Source: an uncultured Candidatus Binatia bacterium
GTDB taxonomy: Bacteria > Desulfobacterota > Binatia > Bin18
Reading direction: 5' to 3'
Length of the DNA: 64,000 nt
Assembly (NCBI GenBank): GCA_965200355.1
Contig: OZ241351.1
Coordinates: 1,564,163-1,628,162, forward strand
Shown piece after piece: positions 802 to 33,655 of the stretch. The notes beneath the pieces were generated by a model, which ran no database searches, was not told the origin of the DNA, and saw only the letters and a list, made by a program, of their open reading frames with translations. The translations under genes were made by a program, and so were the position numbers. Each line of letters begins with the position of its first letter. The stretch's first letter is position 1.

Positions 802-3373
802 AACTCAAAGCCGGCTCTGAGATAGTAGAACCCGCCGTTGAAGCCGTAGGGCGAGGTTTTTGGATACTTCGCGCCGGCGATAGTCGCATAGGGATTGCGC
901 TGTGTATACTTGTCAAACAGGTTTTCCGCACCCACCGCGAGCGTCGCCGCCTCCATAAACGGCAGATTCAGGAAGGTATACGAGAGTTCCAGGTCCACGA
1001 GCCAGCGCGCCCCGCTATTGATGGGCAGGGCCAGCTCTTGCAGGTGGGCCTCGTAGAAACTGTCATAAAATGGAGCCGGCTGAGCAACCGCCACGGTCCG
1101 TAGGTGTGGTCAGCCGTCAGCGAAAAGCGAAATTCCGGCAAGTTCTCTTCCATGGTCCGCAGCAGCCACGGCGCGATGACGGCCGGATTATAGCTATCGA
1201 CGGCCATATCGTTCCAGTTGCCCACCAGCATGAACAGGGTGTTGCCGGCGACCGACGTCAACGGATAGGTGGCCACCACATCCACCCCCTGCGTGGTCAG
1301 GTCAGAGTCGTTGGTAAAGAAGTTGACTGTGCTGAAGGAGGAAGCCTCTGCCACCCCTTGGGCCAGCAACGCCTCAACATCCGCCTCTGTCAGGGCCAGC
1401 GGCGAGGTCAGCCAAATGCGGTCTTGGACCTTGATGCGGTAATAGTCCACCGTCACTTCCACCTTGCCCAGGTTGAAGACTGTGCCAATCGAATAATTGA
1501 CCGATTTTTCCGGCTCCAAGGGCTTGCCGCCCTTGACCACGGCGACCGGGTGGTCCGGCGGCAGGGTGCCTTGTTCTACTAATCTCCCCCCGATGAAATT
1601 TGTACTGACTTTGCGGAAATTGGTCTGCCCGACCGTCGGCGCGCGAAAACCCGAGCCGACCGAGCCGCGCACTGCAAAATTTTCCAGAAATTGCCAGCGC
1701 GCCGACGCCTTGCCGTTCAGCGTATCGCCGATTTTTTCATAGTCCTCATACCGGCCGGCGAGAGCGATGGTCAGGTTTTTGAACACCTCCGCTTCCAGGT
1801 CCAGATAGCCGCCGTAGCTGTTCCAGCGATGGGTGCCGGCCACACTCGGGCTGTGAAGCCTTGAAAGCCGTTGGAACCGATGCTGAATCCCTGCCGGGCT
1901 ATGCCCTCGTCGCTGAACCAGGAGTTCGGGTCGCCAGATTTGATCTCGAACTCCTCTTCCCGGTACTCCAGCCCGAAGGCCAAGTGCAAGGCCGAATAGA
2001 ACAGTCCGACATCGAACGGCCGAGAGATGTCGAAGTTAAACGTCTTGTCAAACTCCCGGTAGCCGCCAGGCTCATACGAGGTCGGAACATTCATCCGCAT
2101 GGCAACCAGATTCGGATTGACGGTATTGTGCATGAAAAAGGACGCAGTGTGATGTCCAAACGAGGCGCTGACGTCATAGGACCAGCCATCGAGCAGCCTC
2201 AGGCCGGTGCTGGAGAGTTCGCCGCGGAGCCCAAAGGCGATACTCCAGTCCTCAACAACCCCACCGAAACGGGGTGTGAACCCGCCCGGAAACCGCTCGT
2301 TGAAAGCCCAGCAGTGCTCGGGCAAGGCCGCCAACGCCTGGTCGTAGTTCGCCGCCGGGTTTTGGAAGACGGTCGGCCGGCCGTCTTCCTCAGGCCCCTG
2401 AAATACGCTGCCACGGGTGTTGGGATTGCGGTAGAAGAAGCCACCCTCGACCTTGCGCTCGGCATAATTGCCAAAGGCGTACAGCCGGCTGTTGATCTCC
2501 TCCAAGTCCAAGCCGAGGTTGCCGAAGAATTTGTAGTCGTATTGCACCTCTGGCGCGCCCCAAATCTGGGCCGCCGGCCGCCGCACGTGTTCGTTCCCGG
2601 CCTCAATCAGCCCGCGCGCATCGCTGCGTTGCACGCTGCGGCTGGTCTCGTCGGCATTCAGAAACTCGAAGCTGAAGTTGGCAAAGCCGTGCTCGGTCAG
2701 GGGCACGCCCAGATTGGCGGCCACTTGCACCTTGTCGCCGTCTCCGTGGTAGTTCTGGCCATAGCTGGTCTGGACGCTCAGCCCCTCGGTGTCTTCGCGC
2801 AGCTTGAAGTTCATCACGCCGGCAATGGCGTCCGAGCCATATTGAGCCGCGGCCCCGTCGCGCAGCACCTCAACTTGCTCCAGGGCAATGGCGGGAATCA
2901 CGGAAACGTCTGGAGCCTAAGAACCGTCCGAGACCCCACCTCCCAGAAAGGTAATCACCGAGGCGCGGTGGCGGCGTTTGCCGTTGACCAACACGAGGGT
3001 AGAGTCCGACGGCAGCCCGCGTAGCGTGGCTGGCCGCACGAGCGTCGCCGCGTCGCTGATGGGTTGTTGGTTGACGTTATAAGACGGCACGGTGGCCGAC
3101 AGCAGGGAGTCCATATCCCGAATGCCGTAGGTCTGTAAGTCTTCGCTCTGAATGACATCCACCGGCACCAGTGAATCCTGGGCCGAACGACCCGCCACCC
3201 GAGAGCCGATGACCCGGAGTTCTTCAAGACCAAGGACCTGTTCCTGTTGTCCGGGCTTGGGCTTCGGCCGGCTCTGGTGCCGCCGTCTCTTGCGCGCCAA
3301 TCCCCAGGGCGCTGGTAAGGATGAACACCCCCGCGAAAAGATACGACTGCCACCACTGACACTGCCTCATATT
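798..3373 (-). pseudogene. Degraded TonB-dependent outer-membrane receptor (upstream paralog of the 3483..6131 gene), broken into >=4 frame fragments
   Basis: ORF fragments 798..1094, 968..1843, 1771..2901, 2917..3300 and the signal-peptide piece MRQCQWWQSYLFAGVFILTSALG (3224..3412, a third frame) together tile a TonB receptor: plug domain, beta-barrel, C-terminal ...YYLRAGFEF. They sit in different frames, so there are several frameshifts. A 150-aa stretch is identical to the intact copy. Confidence 0.7.
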
Positions 3374-3482
3374 GCTTCCCCTCCTCCCGAGTGTCCTGTG
3401 TCGCTTTTCCACCTCAACGCGGGGGCTGGTGTGAAGGCCACCTCCCCCGCGTCATCCGCAAGACCGGCCAGGATGTCCGGGC

Positions 3483-6131
3483 TTAGAACTCGAAGCCGGC
3501 CCGCAGATAGTAGAACCCGCCGTTGAAGCCGTAGGGCGAGGTTTCCGGGTATTTCAGGCCGGCACCAGCCGCTTGCGGGTTCCTGCGCGGGTACTGATCA
3601 AAGATGTTTTCCGCGCCAAAGGCGACGGTCGCCGCCTGCATAAACGGCAGGTTCAGGAAGGTGTACGAGAGTTCCATATCGACCAGAAAGCGCTCGCCGG
3701 CATTAAAGCCGAAGCTGCCGTCGGTCGGGTAGTCGCGGAAACGGTCGTAGAAATACAACCGGGACAGGAAGCGCCACGGCCCCCAGTTGTGGTCGGCTGT
3801 CAGCGAGAACCGGAACTGCGGCAGGCCCTCTTCGATTTGCCGTACCAGCTTATCACTGATGAACTCTGGGGTGCGGCTGTCCACTTCGGTCTTATTCCAG
3901 TTGCCGACGAGCGTGAACTGCGTAAAGCCAGCCACCGATTGCAGCGGGTAGCTCGCTACCACGTCGATGCCCTGGGTGGTGGTGTCGAAGTCGTTGGTGT
4001 AGAAGCGGAGCACCGATATCTGGTTCGGCCCGACCACGGCGTCGAATTCTGCCCGGCTGATGCCCCGCTTGGCGAGTTCGTCGGCCACATTAAAGCGGCT
4101 GCTGCGAACGATGCGGTCCTGCATCTTGATACGATAATAATCGACGGTGACATCGACATCGGCCACGTTGAAGACAAGGCCGGCCGAATAGTTGACAGAT
4201 TTTTCTGGCGTCAAATCGCTGGCGCCGAAGAAGACCGAAGCCGGATGGTAGGCCGGAAAGGTGGCGTCGTCCACTAACAGGCCGTCTGAAAACGACGTCG
4301 TAATTTTGTTCACATTGGCTTGGCCGGGTGTGGGGGCGCGGAAGCCCGAGCTGACCGCTCCGCGCACGGCCAGCATCTCCACCGCCTGCCAGCGGGCCGA
4401 CACCTTCCCGTTGACGGACTCGCCGATTGGATCGTCAAAGTTCTCATACCGGCCGGCCACGCCCAGGGTCAGGGACCGAATCACTTCGGCCTCCAGGTCC
4501 ATATACAGGGCGTAATTCTTCCGCTCATAGTCACCGACGATATTGGGTCCGAATCCGGTAAACCCGTTCGAGCCAACGCCCAGCCCCTGCGGCCCGAAGC
4601 GGTCGAAGTCGGCATACCAGGAGTTTTCGCCCCCGAGTTTCACCTCATATTCTTCAATGTGATACTCGAAGCCGAACGCCATGTTCAGGTCGGAGTAGAG
4701 GAGGCTGCCGAGGTCCACGGGCCGGGAGATGTCCAGATTGAACGTCTTTTCGGTTTGGGAGACACCGCCCGGTCGGTACTCGGTTGGGATGGCGGTCCGC
4801 ATATCGGCCAACTGCGGGTTGATGGTGTTGAGCATGAAATAGTCCACGCTGTTCTCGCCGAAGTAGGCGCTCACATCGTAATACCAGCCGTTGAGCAGGG
4901 CGGAGGCGCTTTCCAGGGTTCCGGTCAGGCCAAAGGCGATGCTCCAGTCCTGCACGTAGCCGCCGAAGCGGGGAGTAAAACCGCCGGGAAAGCGCTCGAT
5001 GAACGAAAAGCAGTCCGGGCCGTTATCGGCAACTTCTCCAAATTGGGGCACGTTGCCGCGGAGAGGAATATCGCGACAGCCGCCCGACCTGCCGTCGGGC
5101 GACAGGTCAATCACCTTGACGGTGGGGGTGCCGTCTTCCAGCGAGTCGCCCCTGAAGACCCCCCCACGGGTATGAGGATTACGGAAATAGAAGCCACCCT
5201 CGACCTTGCGCTCGGCATAATTGCCAAAGGCGTACAGCCGGCTGTTGATCTCCTCCAAGTCCAAGCCGAGGTTGCCGAAGAATTTGTAGTCGTATTGCAC
5301 CTCTGGCGCGCCCCAAATCTGGGCCGCCGGCCGCCGCACGTGTTCGTTCCCGGCCTCAATCAGCCCGCGCGCATCGCTGCGTTGCACGCTGCGGCTGGTC
5401 TCGTCGGCATTCAGAAACTCGAAGCTGAAGTTGGCAAAGCCGTGCTCGGTCAGGGGCACGCCCAGATTGGCGGCCACTTGCACCTTGTCGCCGTCTCCGT
5501 GGTAGTTCTGGCCATAGCTGGTCTGGACGCTCAGCCCCTCGGTGTCTTCGCGCAGCTTGAAGTTCATCACGCCGGCAATGGCGTCCGAGCCATATTGAGC
5601 CGCGGCCCCGTCGCGCAGCACCTCAACCCGCTCCAGGGCAATGGACGGGATCGTGGAAATGTCGGCCCCCTGCGCTCCCCTGGAGTTCGGAGACCCCAGG
5701 AAATTGATCACCGACCCACGGTGGCGGCGTTTGCCGTTGACCAGCACCAGGGTGGAGTCCGGCGGCAACCCGCGTAGCGTGGCTGGTCGCACGAAGGTGG
5801 ACTCGTCGCTGATGGGTTCCTGGCCGACATTATAAGACGGCACGGTGGCCGACAGCAGGGAGTCCATGTCCCGAATGCCGTAGGTCTGCAAGTCTTCGCC
5901 CTGAATAACATCCACCGGCGCCGGCGAATCCTGGGCCGAACGACCCGCCACACGGGAGCCGACCACGCGTAGGTCGCCCAAGTCTATGATATCTGTTGAT
6001 GCCGCCGCCTCCGTCTCTTGAGCCGCGGCTGGTTCTTGCTGGTTCGTGTCTTGCGCTTCAGCCGCAGAGACACCCATCACGGTCAACACACTCACCAAAA
6101 GGCCGACCTGCCACCACTTCAGCTTTCTCAT
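3483..6131 (-). CDS. TonB-dependent outer-membrane receptor (882 aa), intact
   Basis: N-terminal signal peptide (MRKLKWWQVGLLVSVLTVMGVSAAEA). Plug motifs (DLQTYGIRDMDSLL, TLVLVNGKRR). Long barrel region. C-terminal aromatic ...LRAGFEF. Strong SD GAAGGAGG 8 nt upstream of the ATG at 6131. Confidence 0.9.
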   Translation of the reverse strand: MRKLKWWQVGLLVSVLTVMGVSAAEAQDTNQQEPAAAQETEAAASTDIIDLGDLRVVGSRVAGRSAQDSPAPVDVIQGEDLQTYGIRDMDSLLSATVPSYNVGQEPISDESTFVRPATLRGLPPDSTLVLVNGKRRHRGSVINFLGSPNSRGAQGADISTIPSIALERVEVLRDGAAAQYGSDAIAGVMNFKLREDTEGLSVQTSYGQNYHGDGDKVQVAANLGVPLTEHGFANFSFEFLNADETSRSVQRSDARGLIEAGNEHVRRPAAQIWGAPEVQYDYKFFGNLGLDLEEINSRLYAFGNYAERKVEGGFYFRNPHTRGGVFRGDSLEDGTPTVKVIDLSPDGRSGGCRDIPLRGNVPQFGEVADNGPDCFSFIERFPGGFTPRFGGYVQDWSIAFGLTGTLESASALLNGWYYDVSAYFGENSVDYFMLNTINPQLADMRTAIPTEYRPGGVSQTEKTFNLDISRPVDLGSLLYSDLNMAFGFEYHIEEYEVKLGGENSWYADFDRFGPQGLGVGSNGFTGFGPNIVGDYERKNYALYMDLEAEVIRSLTLGVAGRYENFDDPIGESVNGKVSARWQAVEMLAVRGAVSSGFRAPTPGQANVNKITTSFSDGLLVDDATFPAYHPASVFFGASDLTPEKSVNYSAGLVFNVADVDVTVDYYRIKMQDRIVRSSRFNVADELAKRGISRAEFDAVVGPNQISVLRFYTNDFDTTTQGIDVVASYPLQSVAGFTQFTLVGNWNKTEVDSRTPEFISDKLVRQIEEGLPQFRFSLTADHNWGPWRFLSRLYFYDRFRDYPTDGSFGFNAGERFLVDMELSYTFLNLPFMQAATVAFGAENIFDQYPRRNPQAAGAGLKYPETSPYGFNGGFYYLRAGFEF

Positions 6132-6151: not shown

Positions 6152-6340
6152 AACTTCTACAAGCCTTTGCCAACTTCTACAAGCCTTTGCCAACTTCTAC
6201 AAGCCTTTGCCAACTTCTACAAGCCTTTGCCAACTTCTACAAGCCTTTGCCAACTTCTACAAGCCTTTGCCAACTTCTACAAGCCTTTGCCAACTTCTAC
6301 AAGCCTTTGCCAACTTCTACAAGCCTTTGCCAACTTCTAC
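6152..6340. repeat. Perfect 20-bp tandem direct repeat (unit CTTCTACAAGCCTTTGCCAA), ~9.5 copies, in the divergent intergenic region between the TonB receptor and hpnJ
   Basis: Counted directly: AAGCCTTTGC recurs at 6161, 6181, ... 6321 (9 times) with exact 20-bp period. The array begins ~20 nt upstream of the receptor start codon. Confidence 0.95.
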
Positions 6341-6410: not shown

Positions 6411-7853
6411 ATGCGGACATTGTTCTTGAATCCACCTGCGTATGAAAACTTCGATGGAGGCGCCGGCTCACGCTATCAGGCGACTCGGGAGGTCTGGTCG
6501 TTCTGGTACCCGACCTGGCTGTGCTATCCGGCCGGCATGATTGACAACAGCCGCGTTCTGGACGCCCCGCCCGAAGGCTTGAATCAGGCCCAGACCGTTG
6601 AAATCGCCCAAGCGTACGATTTTGTTGTGCTGCACACCAGTACCCCGTCGGTCAAACTGGATGCGCAGACCGCGGAGTTAATAAAAGAAAAGAATCCGGC
6701 CTGCCACATCGCCTTTGTGGGCGGTCAGGCCACGGCTGAGACGGAGAAGACCTTACAGATTTCTGAGGCCATTGATATCGTCGCGCGAAAAGAGTTTGAC
6801 TACTCCATGAAGGAAGTCGCTGAGGGCTGGGAGTGGAAAGATATCCGCGGCATCAGCTATCGTCAGGACGGACACATCCATCACAATCTTGACCGTCCGA
6901 CGCTGACCAATGAAGAGCTTGACCAATTGCCCTTTGTCACCCAGATTTATGATCGGGATTTGGACTTCCGCAAGTATAACAGCCCGTATTGCCAGTATCC
7001 GTATGTGTCGTTATACACCGGCCGGGGCTGTCCGGCGCGCTGTACGTTTTGTCTGTGGCCGCAGGTGACCACCGGCCATTCCTACCGCACCCGCTCGGTG
7101 GGCAATGTCATTGAGGAAGTGCAGGAAATGCAGCGCCTCTTTCCAGGGATGAAAGAAGTCTTCTTTGATGACGACACGTTTACGGCCGACCCGAAACGCG
7201 CCCGTGAGATCGCCAAAAAAATGGGCCGTCTCGGCCTGTGCTGGTCCACGAATGCCCGCGGCAATGTTGACTACGAGACCCTCAAGGTGCTGAAAGATGG
7301 CGGGCTGCGGCTGTTTGTGGTCGGCTATGAGTCGGGCAACGCTGCCATTCTCAAAAATATCAAAAAAGGCGTGGCCCTCGAAACCTCGCGGCGGTTTACG
7401 CGGGACTGCCACCAGCTTGGTATCCTGATCCACGGCACCTTTATTCTGGGCCTGCCGGGAGAAACCCGTGAGACCATGCAGGAGACCATGCGTTTCGCCC
7501 GGGAGATGAATCCAGAAACCATTCAGGTCTCCTTGGCTTCCCCCTATCCTGGCACCGCCTTCTACGATTTCGCCCTTGACAACGGCTATATCAAGGCCGA
7601 GGACATGGTGGGTGAGTCGGGCTATCAGCAGTGCGTGATTAACTATCCCAACCTGTCCGGGGAAGAAATTTTTGAAACGGTTGAGAAATTTTACCGCTCG
7701 TACTACCTCCGTCCGCGCTATATCTTCAAAGCCGTCAAAAAGATGGCGCGCGACCCGGAGGAGCGCAAACGGATGTGGCAGGAAGGCAAAGATTTTTTCC
7801 GTACCATGCGCAAACGGCGGGAGATGAACGTCTCGTCTTCTCCGGCGGTCTAG
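6411..7853 (+). CDS. hpnJ: Hopanoid-biosynthesis-associated B12-binding radical SAM protein HpnJ (cyclitol-ether/ring-contraction enzyme)
   Basis: 480 aa. N-terminal B12-binding-like domain plus radical SAM core (YTGRGCPARCTFC). The conserved C-terminal region is typical of the HpnJ family. Immediately followed by a GT2/GT21 glycosyltransferase (hpnI) and a YdjC-family gene (hpnK), the canonical hpnIJK context. Confidence 0.75.
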   Translation: MRTLFLNPPAYENFDGGAGSRYQATREVWSFWYPTWLCYPAGMIDNSRVLDAPPEGLNQAQTVEIAQAYDFVVLHTSTPSVKLDAQTAELIKEKNPACHIAFVGGQATAETEKTLQISEAIDIVARKEFDYSMKEVAEGWEWKDIRGISYRQDGHIHHNLDRPTLTNEELDQLPFVTQIYDRDLDFRKYNSPYCQYPYVSLYTGRGCPARCTFCLWPQVTTGHSYRTRSVGNVIEEVQEMQRLFPGMKEVFFDDDTFTADPKRAREIAKKMGRLGLCWSTNARGNVDYETLKVLKDGGLRLFVVGYESGNAAILKNIKKGVALETSRRFTRDCHQLGILIHGTFILGLPGETRETMQETMRFAREMNPETIQVSLASPYPGTAFYDFALDNGYIKAEDMVGESGYQQCVINYPNLSGEEIFETVEKFYRSYYLRPRYIFKAVKKMARDPEERKRMWQEGKDFFRTMRKRREMNVSSSPAV

Positions 7854-25746: not shown

Positions 25747-28700
25747 TATGGCCGACCAGAGCCAGCCGGAGGGCGCGCTCGTCCAATCTGAGAAAACGGC
25801 CGCTCGTCAGTCTTCCTTCCCGGAGCCAGGCGTTCTGATGGACCAGCGCTTCTTCCAACAGCCTGTTTTGAATTCGCCCTACGAGTATCCCAGGCAGCAC
25901 TGGGAGCTTGATGAGCAGGGACAGCCAACCCAGCGGATCATCGCAACCCGCCGCCGGGCCGAGTTTATTACGCCCATTCCAAAGCCGCGCAAACGCAAAG
26001 GCTCCGCGCACCAGCAGTCACTCGCCTTAGATGAAGGCCACGGACTCTCAACCGCTGAGCAGCAGTACGACCCGACCTCCATTATCACCGCGCTCCGTCG
26101 TCAGGTGGACCAGTGGCGCAGCCGACCGAATCCGGCCGACTGGCAGGTGACACCCGAGACCGCTCGTCTGCTGCAACACTGGAGACAGCATCAGTTCAGC
26201 ACTATCCGGCCCTTCTTCTGTCAAGTGGAAGCCGTGGAAACCGCGATCTGGCTGACCGAGGTTGCTCCGAGAGCGGGCAAGACCGGCAAGGATTTTCTGG
26301 CACATCTCACCAACGCCAATACCGACGCCAATCCGGGTTTACAGCGCGTGGCGCTCAAGCTCGCCACCGGCGCGGGCAAGACCACGGTTCTTGCCATGCT
26401 GATCGCCTGGCAGACCATCAACGCGGTCCGCCGCCCAACGAGCAGAAGATTTACCCGTGGCTTTCTGGTCGTTACGCCCGGTTTGACGATCCGTGACCGG
26501 CTGCGCGTCCTGCAACCGAACGACCCGGACAGCTATTACGCCAGCCGGGAGCTGGTGCCGGGCGATATGCGCGGCGACCTCAGCCGGGCCAAAATCGTCA
26601 TTACCAACTATCACGCCTTCAAGCGGCGTGAGCGCATGGCGCTTTCAAAAGGCGGTCGCTCGTTGCTCCAGGGGCGCGGGGCCGCCTTGAACACCTTGGA
26701 GACCGAAGGGCAGATGCTTCAGCGCGTCATGCCCGACCTGATGGGCCTGAAAAATATCGTGGTGATGAACGATGAGGCCCACCACTGCTACCGCGAGAAA
26801 CCGGAAAAAGATGACGAAGGAATACTGAAAGGCGACGAGCGAAAAGAAGCGGAGAAAAACAATGAGGCGGCGCGGCTGTGGATTTCTGGCCTGGAAGCCG
26901 TGGGCCGCACGCTGGGTCTGGCGCGGATTATCGACGTATCGGCCACACCGTTCTTTCTGCGCGGCTCGGGCTATGCCGAGGGCACGCTGTTTCCCTGGAC
27001 GATGAGCGACTTTTCCCTCATGGACGCCATCGAATGCGGAATTGTCAAGCTGCCCCGGGTGCCGGTGGCAGACAACATCCCTGGCGGCGAAATGCCGAAA
27101 TTCCGCAATCTGTGGCAACATATTCGACCCCGGATGCCGAAAAAGGGCCGGGGCAAAGCCAAGACCCTTGACCCGCTCAGCCTGCCGGTTGCACTCCAGA
27201 CCGCCCTGGACGCCCTGTACGGCCATTACCAACAGACCTCTGCGTTATGGCAGCAGAAGGGCATTCAGGTGCCGCCCTGTTTTATCGTGGTGTGCAATAA
27301 CACCTCGACCTCCAAGCTGGTGTATGACTATATCTCCGGCTTTTGGCGGGACAATGACGACGGTTCACCGACACTCGAGCATGGCCGCTTGCCGCTGTTC
27401 CGAAACCATGAGGCCGACGGGACTCAATTGGCGCGTCCGCGTACCCTCCTCATCGACAGCCAGCAACTCGAATCCGGGGCTGCCCTGGACACCAATTTTC
27501 GGGCGATGGCGTCAGATGAGATAGCACGCTTCCGCCGCGAGATTATCGAACGGACCGGCGACCATCGCCAGGCCGAAAACCTGTCTGACCAAGACCTGCT
27601 GCGGGAAGTCATGAACACGGTCGGCAAGCCGGGCCGGTTGGGCGCGTCGATTCGTTGCGTGGTGTCGGTTTCCATGCTGACCGAAGGCTGGGACGCCAAC
27701 ACGGTCACGCACGTGTTAGGCGTGCGCGCCTTTGGCACGCAATTATTGTGCGAACAGGTCATTGGGCGGGCCTTGCGCAGGCAATCCTACACGCTGAATG
27801 AGAAGGGGCTGTTGAATGTGGAATACGCCGATGTGCTGGGGATTCCGTTTGACTTTACCGCCAAGCCGGTTGTTGCTCCGCCCCAAACGCCCCGCGAGAC
27901 CGTGCAGGTTCAAGCGGTGCGGCCCGACCGCGACCATTTGGCCATTCAGTTTCCCCGGGTCGCCGGCTATCTCGTTGAACTGCCGGAGGAACGACTCAGC
28001 GTGCAGTTCAACGCCGATTCCGTTCTGGAATTGACCCCAGACCTGGTTGGCCCCTCAATGACCCGGAACGCGGACATTATTGGCGCGGATGTTGACCTGA
28101 GCCTGAAGCATCTGGACAACCTGCGTTCCTCAACCGTGGCGTTCCACGTGACCAAGCGCCTGCTCTACACCAAATGGCGCGACCCTGGCGCAGCACCGAA
28201 GCTCCACTTATTCGGGCAGTTGAAACGCATTTCGGGCAGTTGAAACGCATCACCACGCAATGGCTGGCGACCTGTCTGGTCTGCAAAGGCCGGACCTACC
28301 CCGCTCAACTCCTGTATCAGGAGCTGGCCGATATGGCCTGCGAGCGCATTACTGCTGGTATCACCCGTTCCGTCATCGGCGACCGGCCCGTAAAAGCCGT
28401 GTTGGACCCCTACAATCCCACCGGCTCGACCACGCACGTGCACTTCCATACCTCCAAAGCGCACCGCTGGCAGACGGATGCCCGGCGGTGTCATATCAAC
28501 TGGGTCATCCTCGACAGCGATTGGGAGGCCGAATTCTGCCGGGTGGTTGAGTCGCACCCCGCGGTGCGGGCCTATGTGAAAAATCACAACCTCGGCCTGG
28601 AGGTGCCCTACCGCTCCGGCTCGACCCTGCGGACCTATATTCCCGACTTTATCGTGCTGCTGAACGACGGGCATGACGACCCGTTGCATCTGATTGTTGA

Positions 28701-28854
28701 GATCAAAGGCTATCGGGGCGAGGACGCCAAGTACAAGAAGGCGACGATGGAGACCTACTGGATTCCCGGCGTGAATAATCATGGGCAGTATGGCCGCTGG
28801 GCGTTTGCCGAGTTTACTGCGGTTTATGATATTGAGCGGGAATTGGGGATGTGA
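25747..28854 (+). pseudogene. res: Type III restriction enzyme Res subunit (SF2 DEAH helicase + C-terminal PD-(D/E)xK nuclease), frameshifted by a 20-bp tandem duplication
   Basis: Walker A (KLATGAGKTT) and DEAH (VVMNDEAHHCY). C-terminal PDF...IVEIKG nuclease motif lies in ORF 28174..28854. The two ORFs join seamlessly if one copy of TTCGGGCAGTTGAAACGCAT is removed. Confidence 0.8.
28211..28250 (+). repeat. Perfect 20-bp tandem duplication (TTCGGGCAGTTGAAACGCAT x2) inside res, creating TGA at 28241-28243
   Basis: Read directly: 28211-28230 equals 28231-28250. Confidence 0.95.
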
Positions 28855-28885
28855 GGGGTTAGTGGATAGTGGGGAGTGGGGAGCG
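28855..28885. repeat. GGGGTTAGTGGATAGTGG repeat copy immediately 3' of res (same family as the repeats flanking the four-helix-bundle cassette)
   Basis: TGAGGGGTTAGTGGATAGTGGGGAGTGGGGA directly follows the res stop codon. Confidence 0.7.
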
Positions 28886-31190
28886 ATTCTTCTACGAGGC
28901 GATTGAAGGCTGTCTGTGTTCCTCCGGCAAAGCGCTTGACGGTCGGTAAGTAATAGATTATCCGCCCCTTGAGAGTACGCTGTGCTCCTCGCGATCACGA
29001 GCCGGCCGAAATCCTGGGGCTTTTTTATGCTTGCCCGCTGGACACAATTCTATGCCTCGAAAAGCGAAGAAGACGGCCAAGACGGTTGAAACTCTGCGGC
29101 ACCCCGACGCCTCGCGTAAGAACATCCCCACGGCTGAGTTTCAGGCGGTGATGCGTAAGGACGAACAGAGTCCGATTCAGGTTGCCTATGAGCGGCGCAA
29201 CCGCGACCTGGACCCGTAACTGGTGTGGCGGGGGAAGGATGAACAGGACGGGGCGGATTTGGTGGTGCAGGCTCCGCCGTTGTACATTCAGGAGAAGGTG
29301 CATCCGAAGGTGTTGATTGACGATTTGCGGCAGCGCAGCAAGGAGACCGGCGACGCGAGCGCGCAGCCGGATTTGTTCGCGGATTTTAACGGGCTGCCGA
29401 GCGCGGACGCGCAGACCGAGTTTTATCAGCACGACGCCAACTGGTCGAACCGGATGATTTTGGGCGATAGCTTGCAGGTGATGGCGTCGCTGGCCGAACG
29501 CGAGGGCCTGCGCGGCAAGGTGCAGTGCATTTACCTTGACCCGCCTTACGGCATCAAGTTCAACAGCAACTTTCAGTGGTCAACCACGAGCCGCGATGTC
29601 AAGGACGGGAAGGCAGACCACATCACGCGGGAGCCGGAGCAGGTGAAGGCGTTTCGGGATACGTGGCGGGATGGGATTCATTCGTATTTGACGTATTTGC
29701 GGGACCGGCTGACGGTGGCGCGGGATTTGTTGGCGGAGAGCGGTTCCATCTTCGTGCAGATTGGGGATGAGAATGTCCATCGGGTGCGGGCGGTGATGGA
29801 GGAAGTTTTCGGACAGGACAACCATATTGCAGATATTGTTGTCCTGAAGACAAGTAGCCAAACGTCCCAATACCTTGCTGGAATAGCTGACTATGTAGTT
29901 TGGTATGCCGTCGATAAGGAACGCTTGAAGTACCGGCAACTGAACAAATTCAAAAAGCTTGGAGAAACAGGAACAACCCAATACCTATGGGAACTATCGC
30001 TAGACTTACAGGAATCGCGGATATCTAAGGAACGGAATCCCAGAGGGCATGTGTTTGCCGCTGACAATCTCTCCAGTCAATCCGGCGGTGAAACGACTAG
30101 GTTTGAATTCACCGTATCAGGAAAGATATTTCGGGTCGCTAGAGGAGGCTGGAAGACGAACTTGCAAGGAATGAGGCGTCTGGAGAAAGCTCACAGACTC
30201 AAGCCAATTGGTAAATCCTTGATGTATCGGAGATTTTTGGACGATTTTCCAGTCTATCCTATCGCTAATGTCTGGGACGATGTCTTGGCGACAGGATTCT
30301 CTGAACAGAAGGTATATGTTGTTCAGAGTTCTCAGAAGCTAGTCCAACGCTGCGTCCTCATGACCACCGACCCCGGCGACCTCGTTCTTGACCCAACCTG
30401 CGGTTCTGGCACGACGGCCTACGTTGCTGAACAGTGGGGCCGGCGGTGGATTACGATTGATACGTCTCGCGTCGCCTTGGCCCTGGCCCGTGCCCGTATC
30501 ATGGGTGCTCGCTATCCCTACTACCTGCTCGCCGACAGCCGCGACGGCCAAATCAAAGAAGCCGCGCTGGCCCGCAAAGCTCCCTCGGAAGTGCCCATAT
30601 ACACCGACATCCGCCAAGGCTTCGTGTACGAGCGCGTCCCCCACATCACCCTCAAGGCCATCGCCAACAACGCCGAAATCGACGTAATATGGGAGAAATG
30701 GCAGGAGACGATTCAGCCGCTGCTTGAACAACTCGGAGCCATCGTCGGCGATTCGCCCCTACCGGAATGGGAAGTACCAAGAGACCTGCCGGACCCGTGG
30801 CCGCCGGAGGCTGCGCCGCTGCACGAACAATTCTGGACGGCGAGGGTGGCGCGTCAGCGCGAAATCGACGCCTCCATCGCGGCCAAAGCCGACTACGAGT
30901 ACCTCTACGACAAGCCCTACGAGGATAAGAAAAAAGTTCGGGTGGCCGGGCCGTTTACGGTCGAAAGCCTGTCTCCGCACCGGGTGTTGGGTGTCGATGA
31001 AAACGACGAACTCATCGACCGTGTAGCTGAAAGCACGGTCGGGTACGGCGAAAAGCAGGACTTCGCCGCAGTGATTCTGGAAAACCTCAAAACCGCCGGC
31101 GTGCAGCAGGCCCACAAAGACGACAAAATTACCTTCACCGCAATCACCCCCTGGCCGGGCGATTTGATCTGCGCCGAAGGCCGGTTTGAT

Positions 31191-31310
31191 AGTGGAGTAG
31201 GGGAGAAGGGAGAGTGGATAGAGGGGAAGTGGATAGTGGATAGAAGGGAAGTGGATAGTGGCGAGCAAGACAGCGAAAAACTATCCACTCTCCCCTCATC
31301 ACTATCCACT
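31191..31310. repeat. GTGGATAG-rich hairpin element (4 direct GTGGATAG copies opposed by CTATCCAC copies) lying in-frame inside mod
   Basis: GAGTGGATAGAGGGGAAGTGGATAGTGGATAGAAGGGAAGTGGATAGTG ... AACTATCCACTCTCCCCTCATCACTATCCACTG; a MITE-like inverted repeat. Confidence 0.75.
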
Positions 31311-31608
31311 GAAAATCGCGGCGCGATTTTCATCGGCCCGGAGTTTGGTACGGTCTCGCGCCCGGATTTGGTGGCTGCGGCTCGTGAAGCCGCGGAGGGC
31401 GGTTTTGACGCGCTGATTACTTGCGCCTTCAATTACGACGCGCGCTCGTCCGAGTTTGACAAGCTCGGTCACATTCCTGTGCTCAAAGCTCGCATGAACG
31501 CCGACCTGCATATGGCCGACGATCTGAAGAACACTGGCAAGGGCAATTTGTTCGTCATTTTTGGCGAGCCGGATATTACCGTGGCGAGTGAAGAGTGGTT
31601 AGTGGATA

Positions 31609-32001
31609 GTGTCGGAAACAGAATTGCTCCGTATGACATCTTTACGCTCGTATCGGGACTTGACGGTTTGGCAGAAATCAATGGACTTGACGGTGAGGAT
31701 TTACGCGCTGACGCAGCGCTTTCCTGCCGACGAGAAATATGGGATTACCTCACAAATGCGGCGGGCGGCGTCCTCGATTCCGGCGAACATCGCGGAAGGG
31801 CAGGCAAGGCGCACGACGGGGGAGTTTCTTCAGTCGCTTGGCATTGCGCGGGGCTCGCTGGCAGAACTGGAGACCTTTCTGACCTTATCCGAAAGGCTGG
31901 AGTTGATCGACAAGAAGGCTTCCGAGACCTTGTTGAACGACTGCGCCGAGATAAACAGAATGCTCTACGCCCTGATGCGCTCACTAACCCCTATCCACTA
32001 A
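31609..32001 (+). CDS. Four-helix-bundle protein (TIGR02436 / 23S-rRNA-intervening-sequence protein family)
   Basis: 130 aa with YRDLTVWQKSMDLTVRIYALTQRFPADEKYGITSQMRRAASSIPANIAEGQARRTTGEFLQSLGIARGSLAELETFL, characteristic of the IVS-encoded four-helix-bundle family. It lies in a frame different from mod and is bounded by GGTTAGTGGATAGTG (31596-31610) on the left and a CTAACCCCTATCCAC tandem array on the right. Confidence 0.8.
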   Translation: MSETELLRMTSLRSYRDLTVWQKSMDLTVRIYALTQRFPADEKYGITSQMRRAASSIPANIAEGQARRTTGEFLQSLGIARGSLAELETFLTLSERLELIDKKASETLLNDCAEINRMLYALMRSLTPIH

Positions 32002-32071
32002 CCCCTATCCACTAACCCCTAACCCCTATCCACTAACCCCTATCCACTATCCACTAACCCCTATCCACTAC
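31982..32071. repeat. Tandem array (~6 copies) of the 14-15-bp unit CTAACCCCTATCCAC (reverse complement GTGGATAGGGGTTAG)
   Basis: Read directly; forms the right border of the four-helix-bundle cassette. Confidence 0.9.
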
Positions 32072-32348
32072 TCTCAGGTCACGGTCCACGGGGTGGACGT
32101 ATATCCCAACACCGGCGAAATCCGTAGCGACAGTGCCGACGGCATTGCCTGCTGGTTTATCGACACCGACTACAACGAAGAGAGTTTCTTCGTTCGTCAC
32201 GCCTATTTCCTCGGTGCCAACGATCCCTATAAGGCGCTCAAGACGACCCTCAAAGCCGAGATTAACGCAGACGCCTGGGCAACCCTCAACCGCGACACCT
32301 CCCGCCCGTTCGCCAAACCGGAGTCGGGCCGGATTGCGGTCAAGGTCA

Positions 32349-32687
32349 TCAATCACCTGGGGGATGAGGTGATGAAGGTGTTTCGACTCGACTAAAGGCA
32401 TTCTCTCTCGTATCAAAAGTCAGAGATACCTGGGTGCCGAGCTGACGTAAAACCGCGTCTATCGTGCCGGCCTTGGTGGCATGGTCCGGGTTCAGCATAC
32501 GTCGCACCTCGTTTTCGCCAACGTCCAGGGCGCGGGCGAGGCAACGTTGTGAGATGTTGGCCTGACGATAGGCTTCGTAGAGGGCCGCTTTGAGGACGAT
32601 CTGTAATGGCGGGATGACCAACGGCCGCCGCGTGCTGGCGCGTGTGGGCTCGGGTAAGGCCCGGCCCTCGCAGACCGTCGTTGCCAT
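32349..32687 (-). CDS. HicB-like antitoxin / XRE-type HTH protein; upstream reading frame stays open to 32813 without a canonical start
   Basis: C-terminal HTH (ISQRCLARALDVGENEVRRMLN). The in-frame upstream extension ...GRFIVTFPDFGWGATDGATCEEALEEAKDLLRELMATT resembles the HicB N-domain but contains no ATG or GTG. No hicA-like partner was recognised. Confidence 0.4.
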   Translation of the reverse strand: MATTVCEGRALPEPTRASTRRPLVIPPLQIVLKAALYEAYRQANISQRCLARALDVGENEVRRMLNPDHATKAGTIDAVLRQLGTQVSLTFDTRENAFSRVETPSSPHPPGD

Positions 32688-32815
32688 CAGTTCCCGCAGT
32701 AAGTCCTTGGCCTCTTCCAGCGCCTCCTCACAGGTCGCGCCATCAGTGGCCCCCCAACCAAAGTCGGGAAACGTGACGATAAACCGCCCGTCTTCGACAG
32801 GCAGAAGGACACTCT

Positions 32816-33655
32816 CTAGCGATTATCCCCGAACGCGGCGTCGCGCTCCTTGGCCCGCTTGGACCCGGAAAAGGTGTCTTCGCCCTTTTCCAGCCGATAC
32901 ATGCGGGTGAGGGCGTATGACTGAAACGCGCCGGTGACGCCGGTCCGAAAGCCAGCTTCGTCCTGCATCTGGTTCACCGAGAATTTGGCGATCCGCAGTG
33001 CATAGGCATCTTGCAGGGCGATCCGCTGAGCGAGCTTGCGCGTCTCTGCGGCGAGCTGGTCGCGCGGCACAACCTCGTTGACCAGCCCAAGCCGCTCGGC
33101 CTCTGCCGCGGTAATCCAATCGCCAGTAAAGAGATATTGCTTGGCTTTGCGAAAGCCGATGTCCCAGGCTAGACTGGCGTACTGGACATGGGCCCCCGCC
33201 CAGCGGACCGTGCGGTCGCAAAACTTGGCATCGTCCGCAGCGATAATGAGATCACAGGCCGAGGCCAACATCAGCCCGCCCATAATGCAGTAGCCCTGGA
33301 CTTGGGCAATGGTCGGTTTGGGGCAATCCCGCCAGCGCAGGGTGCAGTCGAGATAGAGGTCCCGGCCGCGTTTATATTCACCCGGCATTCCCTGTGGATA
33401 CGGACGCTTTTTCCAGTCCTCCCGTTCTTGCGGCGTCCCAATGTCATGGCCGGCAGAAAAATGCTTGCCGGCGCCGGCCACGATAATGACTTTGACCGAC
33501 TCGTCTTCCGCGGCGGCGGCCAGGGCCTGATCAAACTCTTCCAGCATCAACCGACTCTGGGCATTGAGTGCCTCAGGGCGGTTGACGGTGATGGTCAGGA
33601 CCGCCTCATCCTGTTGCTGGGTCAGGGTTGTATAGCTCATAATTCCCTCCTTCAT
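32816..33655 (-). CDS. Enoyl-CoA hydratase/isomerase (crotonase) family protein
   Basis: VKVIIVAGAGKHFSAGHDIG oxyanion-hole motif; 279 aa. Confidence 0.85.
   Translation of the reverse strand: MKEGIMSYTTLTQQQDEAVLTITVNRPEALNAQSRLMLEEFDQALAAAAEDESVKVIIVAGAGKHFSAGHDIGTPQEREDWKKRPYPQGMPGEYKRGRDLYLDCTLRWRDCPKPTIAQVQGYCIMGGLMLASACDLIIAADDAKFCDRTVRWAGAHVQYASLAWDIGFRKAKQYLFTGDWITAAEAERLGLVNEVVPRDQLAAETRKLAQRIALQDAYALRIAKFSVNQMQDEAGFRTGVTGAFQSYALTRMYRLEKGEDTFSGSKRAKERDAAFGDNR

Follow-up and report, generated by a model that had tools for sequence, protein, structure and literature searches.

The 64,000-nucleotide stretch analysed here (the window), from contig OZ241351.1 of an uncultured Candidatus Binatia bacterium, carries a Type III restriction-modification locus, and the methyltransferase gene of this locus, mod, harbours a second gene in another reading frame. 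The inner gene encodes a four-helix-bundle (4HB) protein of the family known from intervening sequences (IVS) of 23S rRNA genes, and it lies in a cassette bordered by arrays of heptamers. The window very probably holds a degenerate copy of a conserved nested-gene arrangement, in which an IVS-type exchangeable cassette is accommodated within mod, with one arm of the cassette expanded in this copy.

The nested arrangement is conserved across bacteria

One genome per species was scanned with the 4HB protein, which gave 79 loci, and the window and loci fetched earlier were added to this sample. Both flanks of Mod are present in 59 loci, and in all 59 the cassette sits at the same codon position, with the N-terminal part of Mod ending 50 nt upstream of the 4HB start and the C-terminal part starting about 20 nt past the 4HB stop. 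The gap between the two parts is exactly 435 nt in 39/59 loci. Both parts share a frame with no stop between them in 53/59 (six are out of frame), and the 4HB open reading frame (ORF) is intact in 56/59. Frame-preserving deviations from 435 nt are +21 nt (3 loci) and +42 nt (2 loci, L030 and L057), corresponding to three or six heptamers; at loci of -7, -14 or +56 nt, mod is broken. Hosts come from more than ten phyla and include Chloroflexota, Binatia, Alpha- and Gammaproteobacteria, Planctomycetota, Verrucomicrobiota and Lentisphaerota, together with Cyanobacteriota, Nitrospirota, Desulfobacterota, Bacillota, Bacteroidota, Omnitrophota and others. At L011 (4001-4675) one heptamer has been lost (-7 nt) and the 4HB ORF is fused to the C-terminal part of Mod, giving a 224-aa ORF.

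The mod frame across the inner gene is open to an extent that the 4HB sequence itself does not predict. No mod-frame stop crosses the 4HB gene in 61/62 nested copies, compared with 3.0 stops expected from synonymous-codon shuffles within each gene (P(zero) = 0.034) and 2.8 on average in 20 non-nested close relatives, only one of which (1/20) has none. The third frame contains about nine stops in nested and non-nested groups alike, and the contrast in mod-frame stops between nested genes and their non-nested relatives is clear. Codon identity at conserved residues, compared at equal protein identity, is 58-64% in nested 4HB genes vs 44-52% in flanking mod, which fits an added constraint on the overlap. 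With a cassette length divisible by three and no stops in the mod frame, Mod would be read through with ~145 extra residues, and from the conservation of both frames, translation of the 4HB protein probably begins at a start codon of its own.

The initial annotation had described the cassette as an insertion that splits a methyltransferase, or as programmed gene fragmentation, and homologous proteins contradict this. Searches with the repaired Mod returned many intact proteins of ~925 aa that read ...GEPDIDILDADNGQIQVRINGVDVF... and a second class of 1051-1109 aa that read ...GEPDITVASEEWLVDS...(about 145 aa)...HSPLTTVHYSQVAVHGVDVF..., the latter being intact homologues with the segment in frame, which the annotation itself had named as counter-evidence. 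In the DNA of three of the longer Mods (L008-L010), the mod ORF is unbroken and encloses an intact +1-frame 4HB gene of 122 codons. One of these, L010, is an uncultured Candidatus Binatia chromosome (OY282457.1) that encodes an intact Mod of 1106 aa and is syntenic with the window over res, mod, enoyl-CoA hydratase, SIS and uvrB. The nearest homologues of the window 4HB protein, with up to 84% identity (81-84%), sit at the corresponding position, downstream of the same GAAGAGTGGTTAGTGGATAGT and ahead of a Mod C-terminus that shares 80-82% identity with that of the window.

A recent mobile insertion that split the 3' end of mod, or a programmed split that yields a two-polypeptide Mod, is therefore extremely unlikely. 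Either could account for the C-terminal 107 codons of the window lying in another frame, with a possible GTG start at 32093, and for the separate C-terminal ORFs of 101-120 aa annotated in L001-L007. However, neither agrees with one shared insertion codon in 59 loci, 53 of them unbroken, or with the intact Mod of the syntenic L010. The split in the window is a secondary lesion caused by eight extra heptamers (+56 nt) and not by the cassette itself, the separation in L002-L005 is due to an insertion sequence, and in the window mod is further affected by a nonsense codon and res by a frameshift. The insertion sequence in L002-L005 (4529-5911) encodes DDE_Tnp_1 and lies in mod upstream of the cassette; L125 carries an IS3-type insertion sequence (1818-2986), also in mod upstream of the cassette.

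Structure of the cassette and its protein in the window

The cassette measures 491 nt (31584-32074) and separates the mod body (frame 0) from the last 107 codons (frame 2); this and the other parts of the restriction-modification locus of the window are on the forward strand. Its left arm (31581-31611) reads GTGGCGA GTGAAGA GTGGTTA GTGGATA GTG, or VASEEWLVDS in the mod frame, contains the left boundary GGTTAGTGGATAGTG at 31597-31611, and is almost invariant in 38 loci of many phyla. A spacer (31612-31632) leads to the start codon of the intact 4HB gene (31633-32001, frame 1, 122 aa). A Shine-Dalgarno-like motif precedes the 4HB start in the spacer of 48/62 loci and is absent, by the same criterion, from the spacer of the window. 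The right arm (31982-32074) is expanded to 13 heptamers (CACTAAC/CCCTATC...), and the TAA stop of the 4HB gene falls within it. Tandem Repeats Finder (TRF) reads this array as 6.4 copies of CACTAACCCCTATC. The tandem repeat noted initially is present, but its period is 7/14 nt rather than 15 nt. Similarly, for the gene first placed at 31609-32001 the ORF and the family assignment stand, but the start is ATG 31633 and not GTG 31609, because most of the closest homologues, the best matches included, are 122 aa long.

Alignment of the mod flanks to intact homologues, as the annotation had proposed, shows that the cassette takes the place of a short loop, DILDAEDGQI, and is not placed between two adjacent residues. 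The cassette occupies one variable loop of Type III Mod, between GEPDI and QVxVxGVDV, as a discrete unit of canonically 435 nt that consists of a left arm of 4-5 heptamers, a spacer, the 122-codon 4HB gene and a right arm of five inverted heptamers, in which the 4HB stop codon falls. Two further claims of the annotation are borne out. The repeat-bounded 4HB cassette between the mod body and the C-terminus is real, as indicated by the match to PF05635, the only Pfam family found in the insert, and by enrichment of GTGGATAG, of which the window contains 14 copies vs 0.9 expected (0/100 shuffles reach 14), all within 28862-32068 and hence, over the 64 kb, only in the restriction-modification locus. 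The Mod C-terminus is indeed displaced to another frame (32075-32395 in frame 2, against frame 0 for the body and frame 1 for the 4HB gene).

The 4HB protein is a clear member of its family, with matches to PF05635 (137.8 bits, cut-off 33.8, E = 1.9e-40), TIGR02436 (134 bits, cut-off 24) and NF008911 (151 bits, cut-off 137), and to PDB 2GSC at E = 7e-24. A homopentameric ring of four-helix bundles is characteristic of the family, and the homologous structures 2GSC and 2RLD each contain five chains as deposited. A conserved motif, GxxRxxxSxxxNxxE, has been reported for the family, and members sit between cas genes (PMC3936711). The sequence MRRAASSIPANIAEG of the window protein fits RxxxSxxxNxxE, with the leading G off the stated spacing, and the protein has no PADLOC match. 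The accessory variability determinant (Avd) of diversity-generating retroelements shares the four-helix-bundle fold family and gave weak matches, but identity with Avd was rejected, since both scores fall below the cut-off (PF22296, 29 vs 40 bits; NF033474, 33.6 vs 80 bits). Among the ORFs scanned (res, mod, cassette and 32816-33655), none encodes a reverse-transcriptase domain; template and variable repeats were not searched for.

Filled, empty and swapped alleles

The mod site exists in alternative states among close relatives. The closest Mods form 119 clusters that share at least 66% identity with P0237, a cassette-bearing close homologue of the window Mod, and the site is empty in 100/119, with a 15-residue loop instead of the cassette. 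A type A cassette, whose arms read SEEWLVDS / HSPLTT, is present in 6/119 and a type B cassette, whose arms read SGxWLVT / FPLSLTT, in 12/119. No heptamers were found in the empty-site DNA of L090. The 4HB genes of types A and B are 50-58% identical to each other, and swapping is exemplified by L008 (type B) and L018 (type A), in which the Mod flanks are 93% identical and the 4HB genes 54%. Conversely, type A 4HB genes that are 59-64% identical, with nearly the same arms and at the homologous site, occur in Mods only 25-30% identical in the N-flank, from Bacillota, Bacteroidota, Phycisphaerae and Omnitrophota. Two Mods, P0129 and P0133, have type B inserts 32 residues shorter than the others, as would result if part of the nested 4HB gene had been deleted in frame, with the mod frame kept.

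Exact matches to the type A left arm in a metagenome scan comprised 32 loci, ~25 of which are Mod-4HB loci, two are intergenic hairpins without a gene and one is a truncated copy. Viral contigs contained no exact match to the left arm, and a search of the plasmid collection found no Mod-nested 4HB copy. In having a conserved site, filled and empty alleles, horizontal exchange and a host function preserved despite a large insertion, the cassette resembles inteins and homing introns. It differs in that, as the conserved frame implies, the protein retains the insert. An intein, a self-splicing intron and a homing endonuclease were all rejected, because Pfam and Rfam detect no splicing domain, ribozyme or homing endonuclease in the insert.

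Arms and hairpins

The two arms are complementary and may pair in RNA or in single-stranded DNA. The arm duplex has a median energy of -43.5 kcal/mol, compared with mostly -16 to -41 kcal/mol per locus for controls, and a terminal stem is present in both the minimum-energy and the centroid fold of the L010 cassette. As in the definition of an IVS, complementary borders enclose an ORF, here without covariation support: compensatory pairs are lacking because the arm sequences are nearly invariant, and covariation speaks neither for nor against a functional stem. The longest perfect inverted repeat reaches 24 nt in an intergenic copy from Nostoc, but measures 11-13 nt in two other intergenic copies, as it does in the nested copies and the rRNA IVS. 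Perfect complementarity was consequently dropped as a discriminator of copies, since it is 11-13 nt nearly everywhere.

Heptamer hairpins without a gene also occur within Mod. In the window, such a hairpin (31188-31310) is in frame in a second variable loop, CAEG...IFIGPEFG, and its stem spans 31228-31310 (-44.4 kcal/mol, z -4.7). L010 has a hairpin at the same site, in which a loop separates four heptamers from four inverted ones (-41.1 kcal/mol, z -6.2), and the site is empty in L090 and L008. The initial annotation had listed related hairpin repeats at this position and after res; the first is an in-frame hairpin, but the array after res (28855-28883) forms none (RNA fold z +0.8). Short inserts (HHSSLST, SGQWSVAS) at other variable sites of other Mods (P0143, P0171, P0183, P0205) look like arms without a gene, and gene-less intergenic hairpins are present in L105 and L122. 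Rfam reported nothing above threshold over 28000-33000; its sub-threshold matches were limited to microRNA precursors that resemble the hairpin.

Among published elements, these hairpins are paralleled most closely by the Rickettsia palindromic elements, which are tolerated as in-frame insertions in protein-coding genes (PMC10969869). The gene-less hairpins in frame in Mod behave similarly, but the full-length cassette differs in carrying a conserved gene in another frame than its host, and its arms are heptamer arrays and not a unique palindrome. Also unlike Rickettsia palindromic elements and repeats similar to miniature inverted-repeat transposable elements, the repeats show no multi-copy spread outside the restriction-modification locus within the 64-kb window.

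Relation to rRNA intervening sequences and other genomic contexts

IVS with an ORF (S23p) occur in the 23S rRNA of Leptospira, Coxiella and Brucella. The Coxiella IVS measures 428-444 nt, has a 28-bp terminal stem that is cut by RNase III, and encodes S23p (PMC4990558). The suggestion in the initial annotation of an IVS-like, possibly mobile cassette holds up well against this comparison. The mod cassette encodes the same protein family (PF05635/TIGR02436), has a similar length (435 nt vs 428-444 nt), has complementary termini around its ORF, takes the place of a structural element's tip at a site that is conserved, and is sporadic at that site, being present, absent or swapped among close Mods; gene-less short forms exist in both cases. 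The arm design is matched by an rRNA copy found in the plasmid search. On plasmid AZO_p2 of Azospirillum lipoferum 4B (L126), an unannotated stretch proved to be an rRNA operon (Rfam), and a 4HB ORF (3501-3851) lies inside its 23S gene (2295-5493). The left arm of this IVS reads CAGAGGA CGGATGA CAGAGGA CGGAGGA CAGAAAG and is matched by inverted heptamers on the right (5+5, as in the cassette), and the IVS folds with a ~35-bp terminal stem (z -11.8).

Cassette size, gene and arm design thus match an IVS, but location and fate do not. The host is the protein-coding mod, with no rRNA or other Rfam family at 28000-33000, and the arms in mod are less perfectly complementary than those of the rRNA copy. 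RNase III cuts the IVS out of rRNA transcripts and the ends are not re-ligated, a process that in mod would destroy the host message. The mod cassette would in contrast not be removed: it is kept in frame and free of stops, with ~370 nt that code in two frames, and this conservation of frame argues that at least some mod transcripts are translated uncut.

Mod is not the only restriction-modification gene with a nested copy. The mod-frame translation of the cassette retrieved only 12 short fragments in a word-indexed search, and an exhaustive search of representatives returned mostly Mod fragments plus a 1086-aa Type IIG enzyme (HSDR_N, MmeI_Mtase, Eco57I, TaqI_C). Its gene (L124, 1501-4761) contains an intact 122-aa 4HB gene (2735-3103) in the +1 frame, the same relative frame as in mod, just upstream of the S-adenosylmethionine-binding motif ICDPACGSGSF and with inverted heptamer arms of the GGGGNNN type. 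Nesting is therefore not peculiar to one Mod family. Outside Mod, heptamer arrays lie within 150 nt of 20/23 4HB copies vs 36/1898 background blocks, and these copies adjoin housekeeping genes (dnaE2, msrA, nrdA/B, cytochrome b, a symporter and an aldolase). The Nostoc plasmid copy is intergenic, between nrdB and nrdA, with arms (AGTRGGG)x8 and (TCCCTAC)x5. In Caldilineaceae (L034, L037, L046, L053), 4HB genes with (AGTGGTC)n arrays stand beside the error-prone polymerase gene dnaE2, and the gene order in L034 is imuB, 4HB, dnaE2, 4HB. In L050 (3983-5209) a 4HB domain is fused in frame to the methionine sulfoxide reductase MsrA (409 aa).

The distribution of the family bears on whether the 4HB protein might have been domesticated to work together with the restriction-modification enzyme, perhaps as its regulator or as a nucleic-acid-binding subunit, with expression coupled to mod by nesting, and not be selfish. 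We consider such a role unlikely. Strong conservation and an intact 4HB ORF in 56/59 loci count in favour of a partner, and a nested copy in a second, unrelated restriction-modification enzyme and relatives between cas genes (PMC3936711) point the same way. On the other hand, 100/119 of the closest Mods manage without a 4HB gene, PADLOC does not recognize the protein, and close relatives stand beside dnaE2, msrA, nrdA/B and cytochrome b, with one inside a 23S rRNA gene.

State of the restriction-modification locus in the window

The locus (25838-32395) is a Type III system of the BPTD_3080 type in which res and mod are adjacent but not both intact, owing to three lesions. The restriction gene, res (25838-28854), starts at 25838 with MDQRFF, and its product matches NF046055 (1098 bits, cut-off 800) and the Pfam domains ResIII and RE_endonuc. 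Its reading frame switches at 28174-28243, where a perfect 20-bp tandem duplication (TTCGGGCAGTTGAAACGCAT x2, 28211-28250, TRF 100% identity) shifts the frame; removal of one TTCGGGCAGTTGAAACGCAT copy gives an open res frame of 1090 codons. Directly 3' of the res stop is an array resembling the left arm (28855-28883), consisting of GGGGTTAGTGGATAG followed by AGTGGGG x2.3. Here GGGGTTAGTGGATAG (28855-28869) is the exact reverse complement of the right-array unit CTATCCACTAACCCC (31991-32005 and repeats), so that mod is bracketed by 15-bp inverted repeats ~3.1 kb apart.

Comparison with homologues shows that the first 55 codons of mod (29052-29219) are closed by a TAA nonsense codon (29217-29219), which replaces CAA in the conserved DLDPQLVWRGK (Gln in homologues); a GTG follows one codon on (29223). 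The mod body (29223-31583, frame 0) encodes a Type III N6/N4 methyltransferase up to ...FGEPDITV, matches PF01555 at E = 1e-31 and is 81-82% identical to intact homologues; P0237 matches the PADLOC model MTase_III. The displaced C-terminal part (32075-32395, frame 2; 106 codons plus stop) encodes QVTVHGVDVY...KVFRLD, reading QVTVHGVDVYPNTGEIRSD...KVFRLD, with 80-93% identity to homologous Mod C-termini. The displacement follows from the right arm, which is 56 nt (eight heptamers) longer than in six homologous cassettes, L010 among them, the canonical arm having five heptamers; the extra length shifts the C-terminal part to frame 2, and each frame meets a TAA. In silico deletion of 14, 35 or 56 nt at any of 40 starts (31976-32015) restores a full mod ORF, and deletion of 7, 21, 28, 42 or 49 nt does not. 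The eight heptamers were probably gained by slippage. Together, the +56 nt, the TAA codon and the res duplication indicate that the restriction-modification system has most likely been inactivated, with the 4HB gene still intact, and a decaying or switched-off system is the simplest reading of the locus.

Known phase-variable Type III mod genes are switched off and on by simple repeats, and the heptamer array could in principle be a switch of this type, with 14-nt units gained or lost to toggle mod. The parallel is close in some respects: a tandem repeat in the ORF of a Type III mod sets the frame, the array contains 6.4 near-perfect 14-nt copies, loss of one unit (or of 35 or 56 nt) restores the ORF, in-frame +42 alleles occur in other species (L030, L057), and the lesion in res is likewise a tandem duplication. 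We nevertheless regard a switch as improbable. The repeat is the arm of an inserted cassette with a period of 7/14 nt, as opposed to 1-5 nt in phase-variable genes, only 6/59 loci are out of frame, most arms consist of five non-identical heptamers, which are poor substrates for slippage, and slippage cannot reverse the TAA nonsense codon of the window. This codon and the duplication in res both speak against simple switching. A similarly low probability is assigned to the +56 nt and the 20-bp duplication being assembly or sequencing artefacts in an intact system. Tandem repeats are prone to assembly errors, and both lesions are of this kind; the source is apparently metagenome-assembled, with relatives from long-read assemblies. 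Against this, CAA>TAA is a substitution and not a repeat error, comparable differences in heptamer number exist in other genomes, and the truncated 930-aa ORF is on record from two sources, possibly one assembly.

The neighbourhood of mod varies. An AAA-ATPase gene often lies downstream of this Mod family (L001, L002, L008, L125), joined in L001, L002 and L008 by a UvrD-like helicase gene, and the pair may be a linked second defence module; the window has neither gene. Elsewhere in the window (6152-6340), a perfect 20-bp tandem repeat, AACTTCTACAAGCCTTTGCC, is present in 9.4 copies that are 100% identical. This array lies between two divergent genes, one for a TonB-dependent receptor (3483-6131, reverse strand) and one for a B12-binding radical-SAM protein (6411-7853, forward strand), and changes in its length could alter promoter spacing.

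Discussion

In the mechanism we propose, the mod cassette would be an IVS-type selfish or exchangeable element that survives in a coding gene because the gene is not interrupted. Several points weigh against this reading. Read-through of Mod and internal initiation of the 4HB gene are both argued from sequence conservation only, and because the loci are phylogenetically related, the 61/62 stop-free copies overstate the count of independent events. The analysis revealed neither a recombinase nor a target-site duplication nor any other mobility function, and mod alleles could have exchanged the cassette through ordinary homologous recombination. For 38 arm pairs, the RNAalifold consensus stem is weak (12 pairs, -7.4 kcal/mol), and the whole cassette folds no better than shuffles (z -0.26). 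The site is claimed to be a surface loop from sequence variability alone, as the AlphaFold2 model of the 1106-aa cassette-bearing Mod, built from a 119-sequence alignment, was poor (pLDDT 53, pTM 0.34) and was not used; that discarded model at most hints that the arm peptides are beta strands. Finally, the lengths of the +56 nt array and the 20-bp duplication are those of the assembled sequence.

A broader proposal treats heptamer-armed 4HB cassettes as one widespread class of autonomous elements, with recognition of the arms, colonization of loops and tips, and non-autonomous derivatives. A pentameric 4HB protein would recognize the heptamers of each arm, about five in number, as RNA or as single-stranded DNA, and this recognition would explain what the IVS ORF does, a question of long standing. 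Sites colonized by the element would be tips of structured RNAs, namely helices of 23S rRNA, and surface loops of proteins, notably restriction-modification methyltransferases; in proteins it would persist by coding in two frames. Gene-less hairpins and arrays, possibly including the short tandemly repeated heptamers of cyanobacteria, would be its non-autonomous derivatives. Heptamer repeats were reportedly described inside cyanobacterial RNase P RNA by Vioque in 1997. We hold this proposal as a whole to be doubtful, and the coincidence of about five heptamers per arm with a pentameric protein is only a lead.

In the literature searched we found no description of 4HB genes nested in restriction-modification genes, or of heptamer-armed IVS elements. 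To our knowledge, neither a function nor mobility has been established for ORF-bearing rRNA IVS since the 1990s, and the many 'four helix bundle' genes scattered in defence loci are explained no better. The two are now linked by one architecture, heptamer arms around a 4HB gene. The nested copies also constitute a large family of conserved overlapping genes, with ~370 nt of dual-coding sequence kept in more than ten phyla, in which the inner 4HB gene would be missed, wherever the host gene is intact, by gene callers that do not allow fully nested ORFs. For annotation, Mods of this family with 145 extra residues, or with an apparent 'split', should be taken as carriers of the cassette. Intact nested alleles occur in the cultured strains Thiocapsa imhoffii DSM 21303 (L044; NZ_NRSD01000001.1, about 210988-219353), Thiorhodococcus minor DSM 11518 (L027) and Spirulina sp. 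CCNP1310 (L061). Because filled, empty and swapped states of the mod site exist in nature, in part in cultured strains, movement of the cassette, cleavage by RNase III and binding by the 4HB protein are testable.

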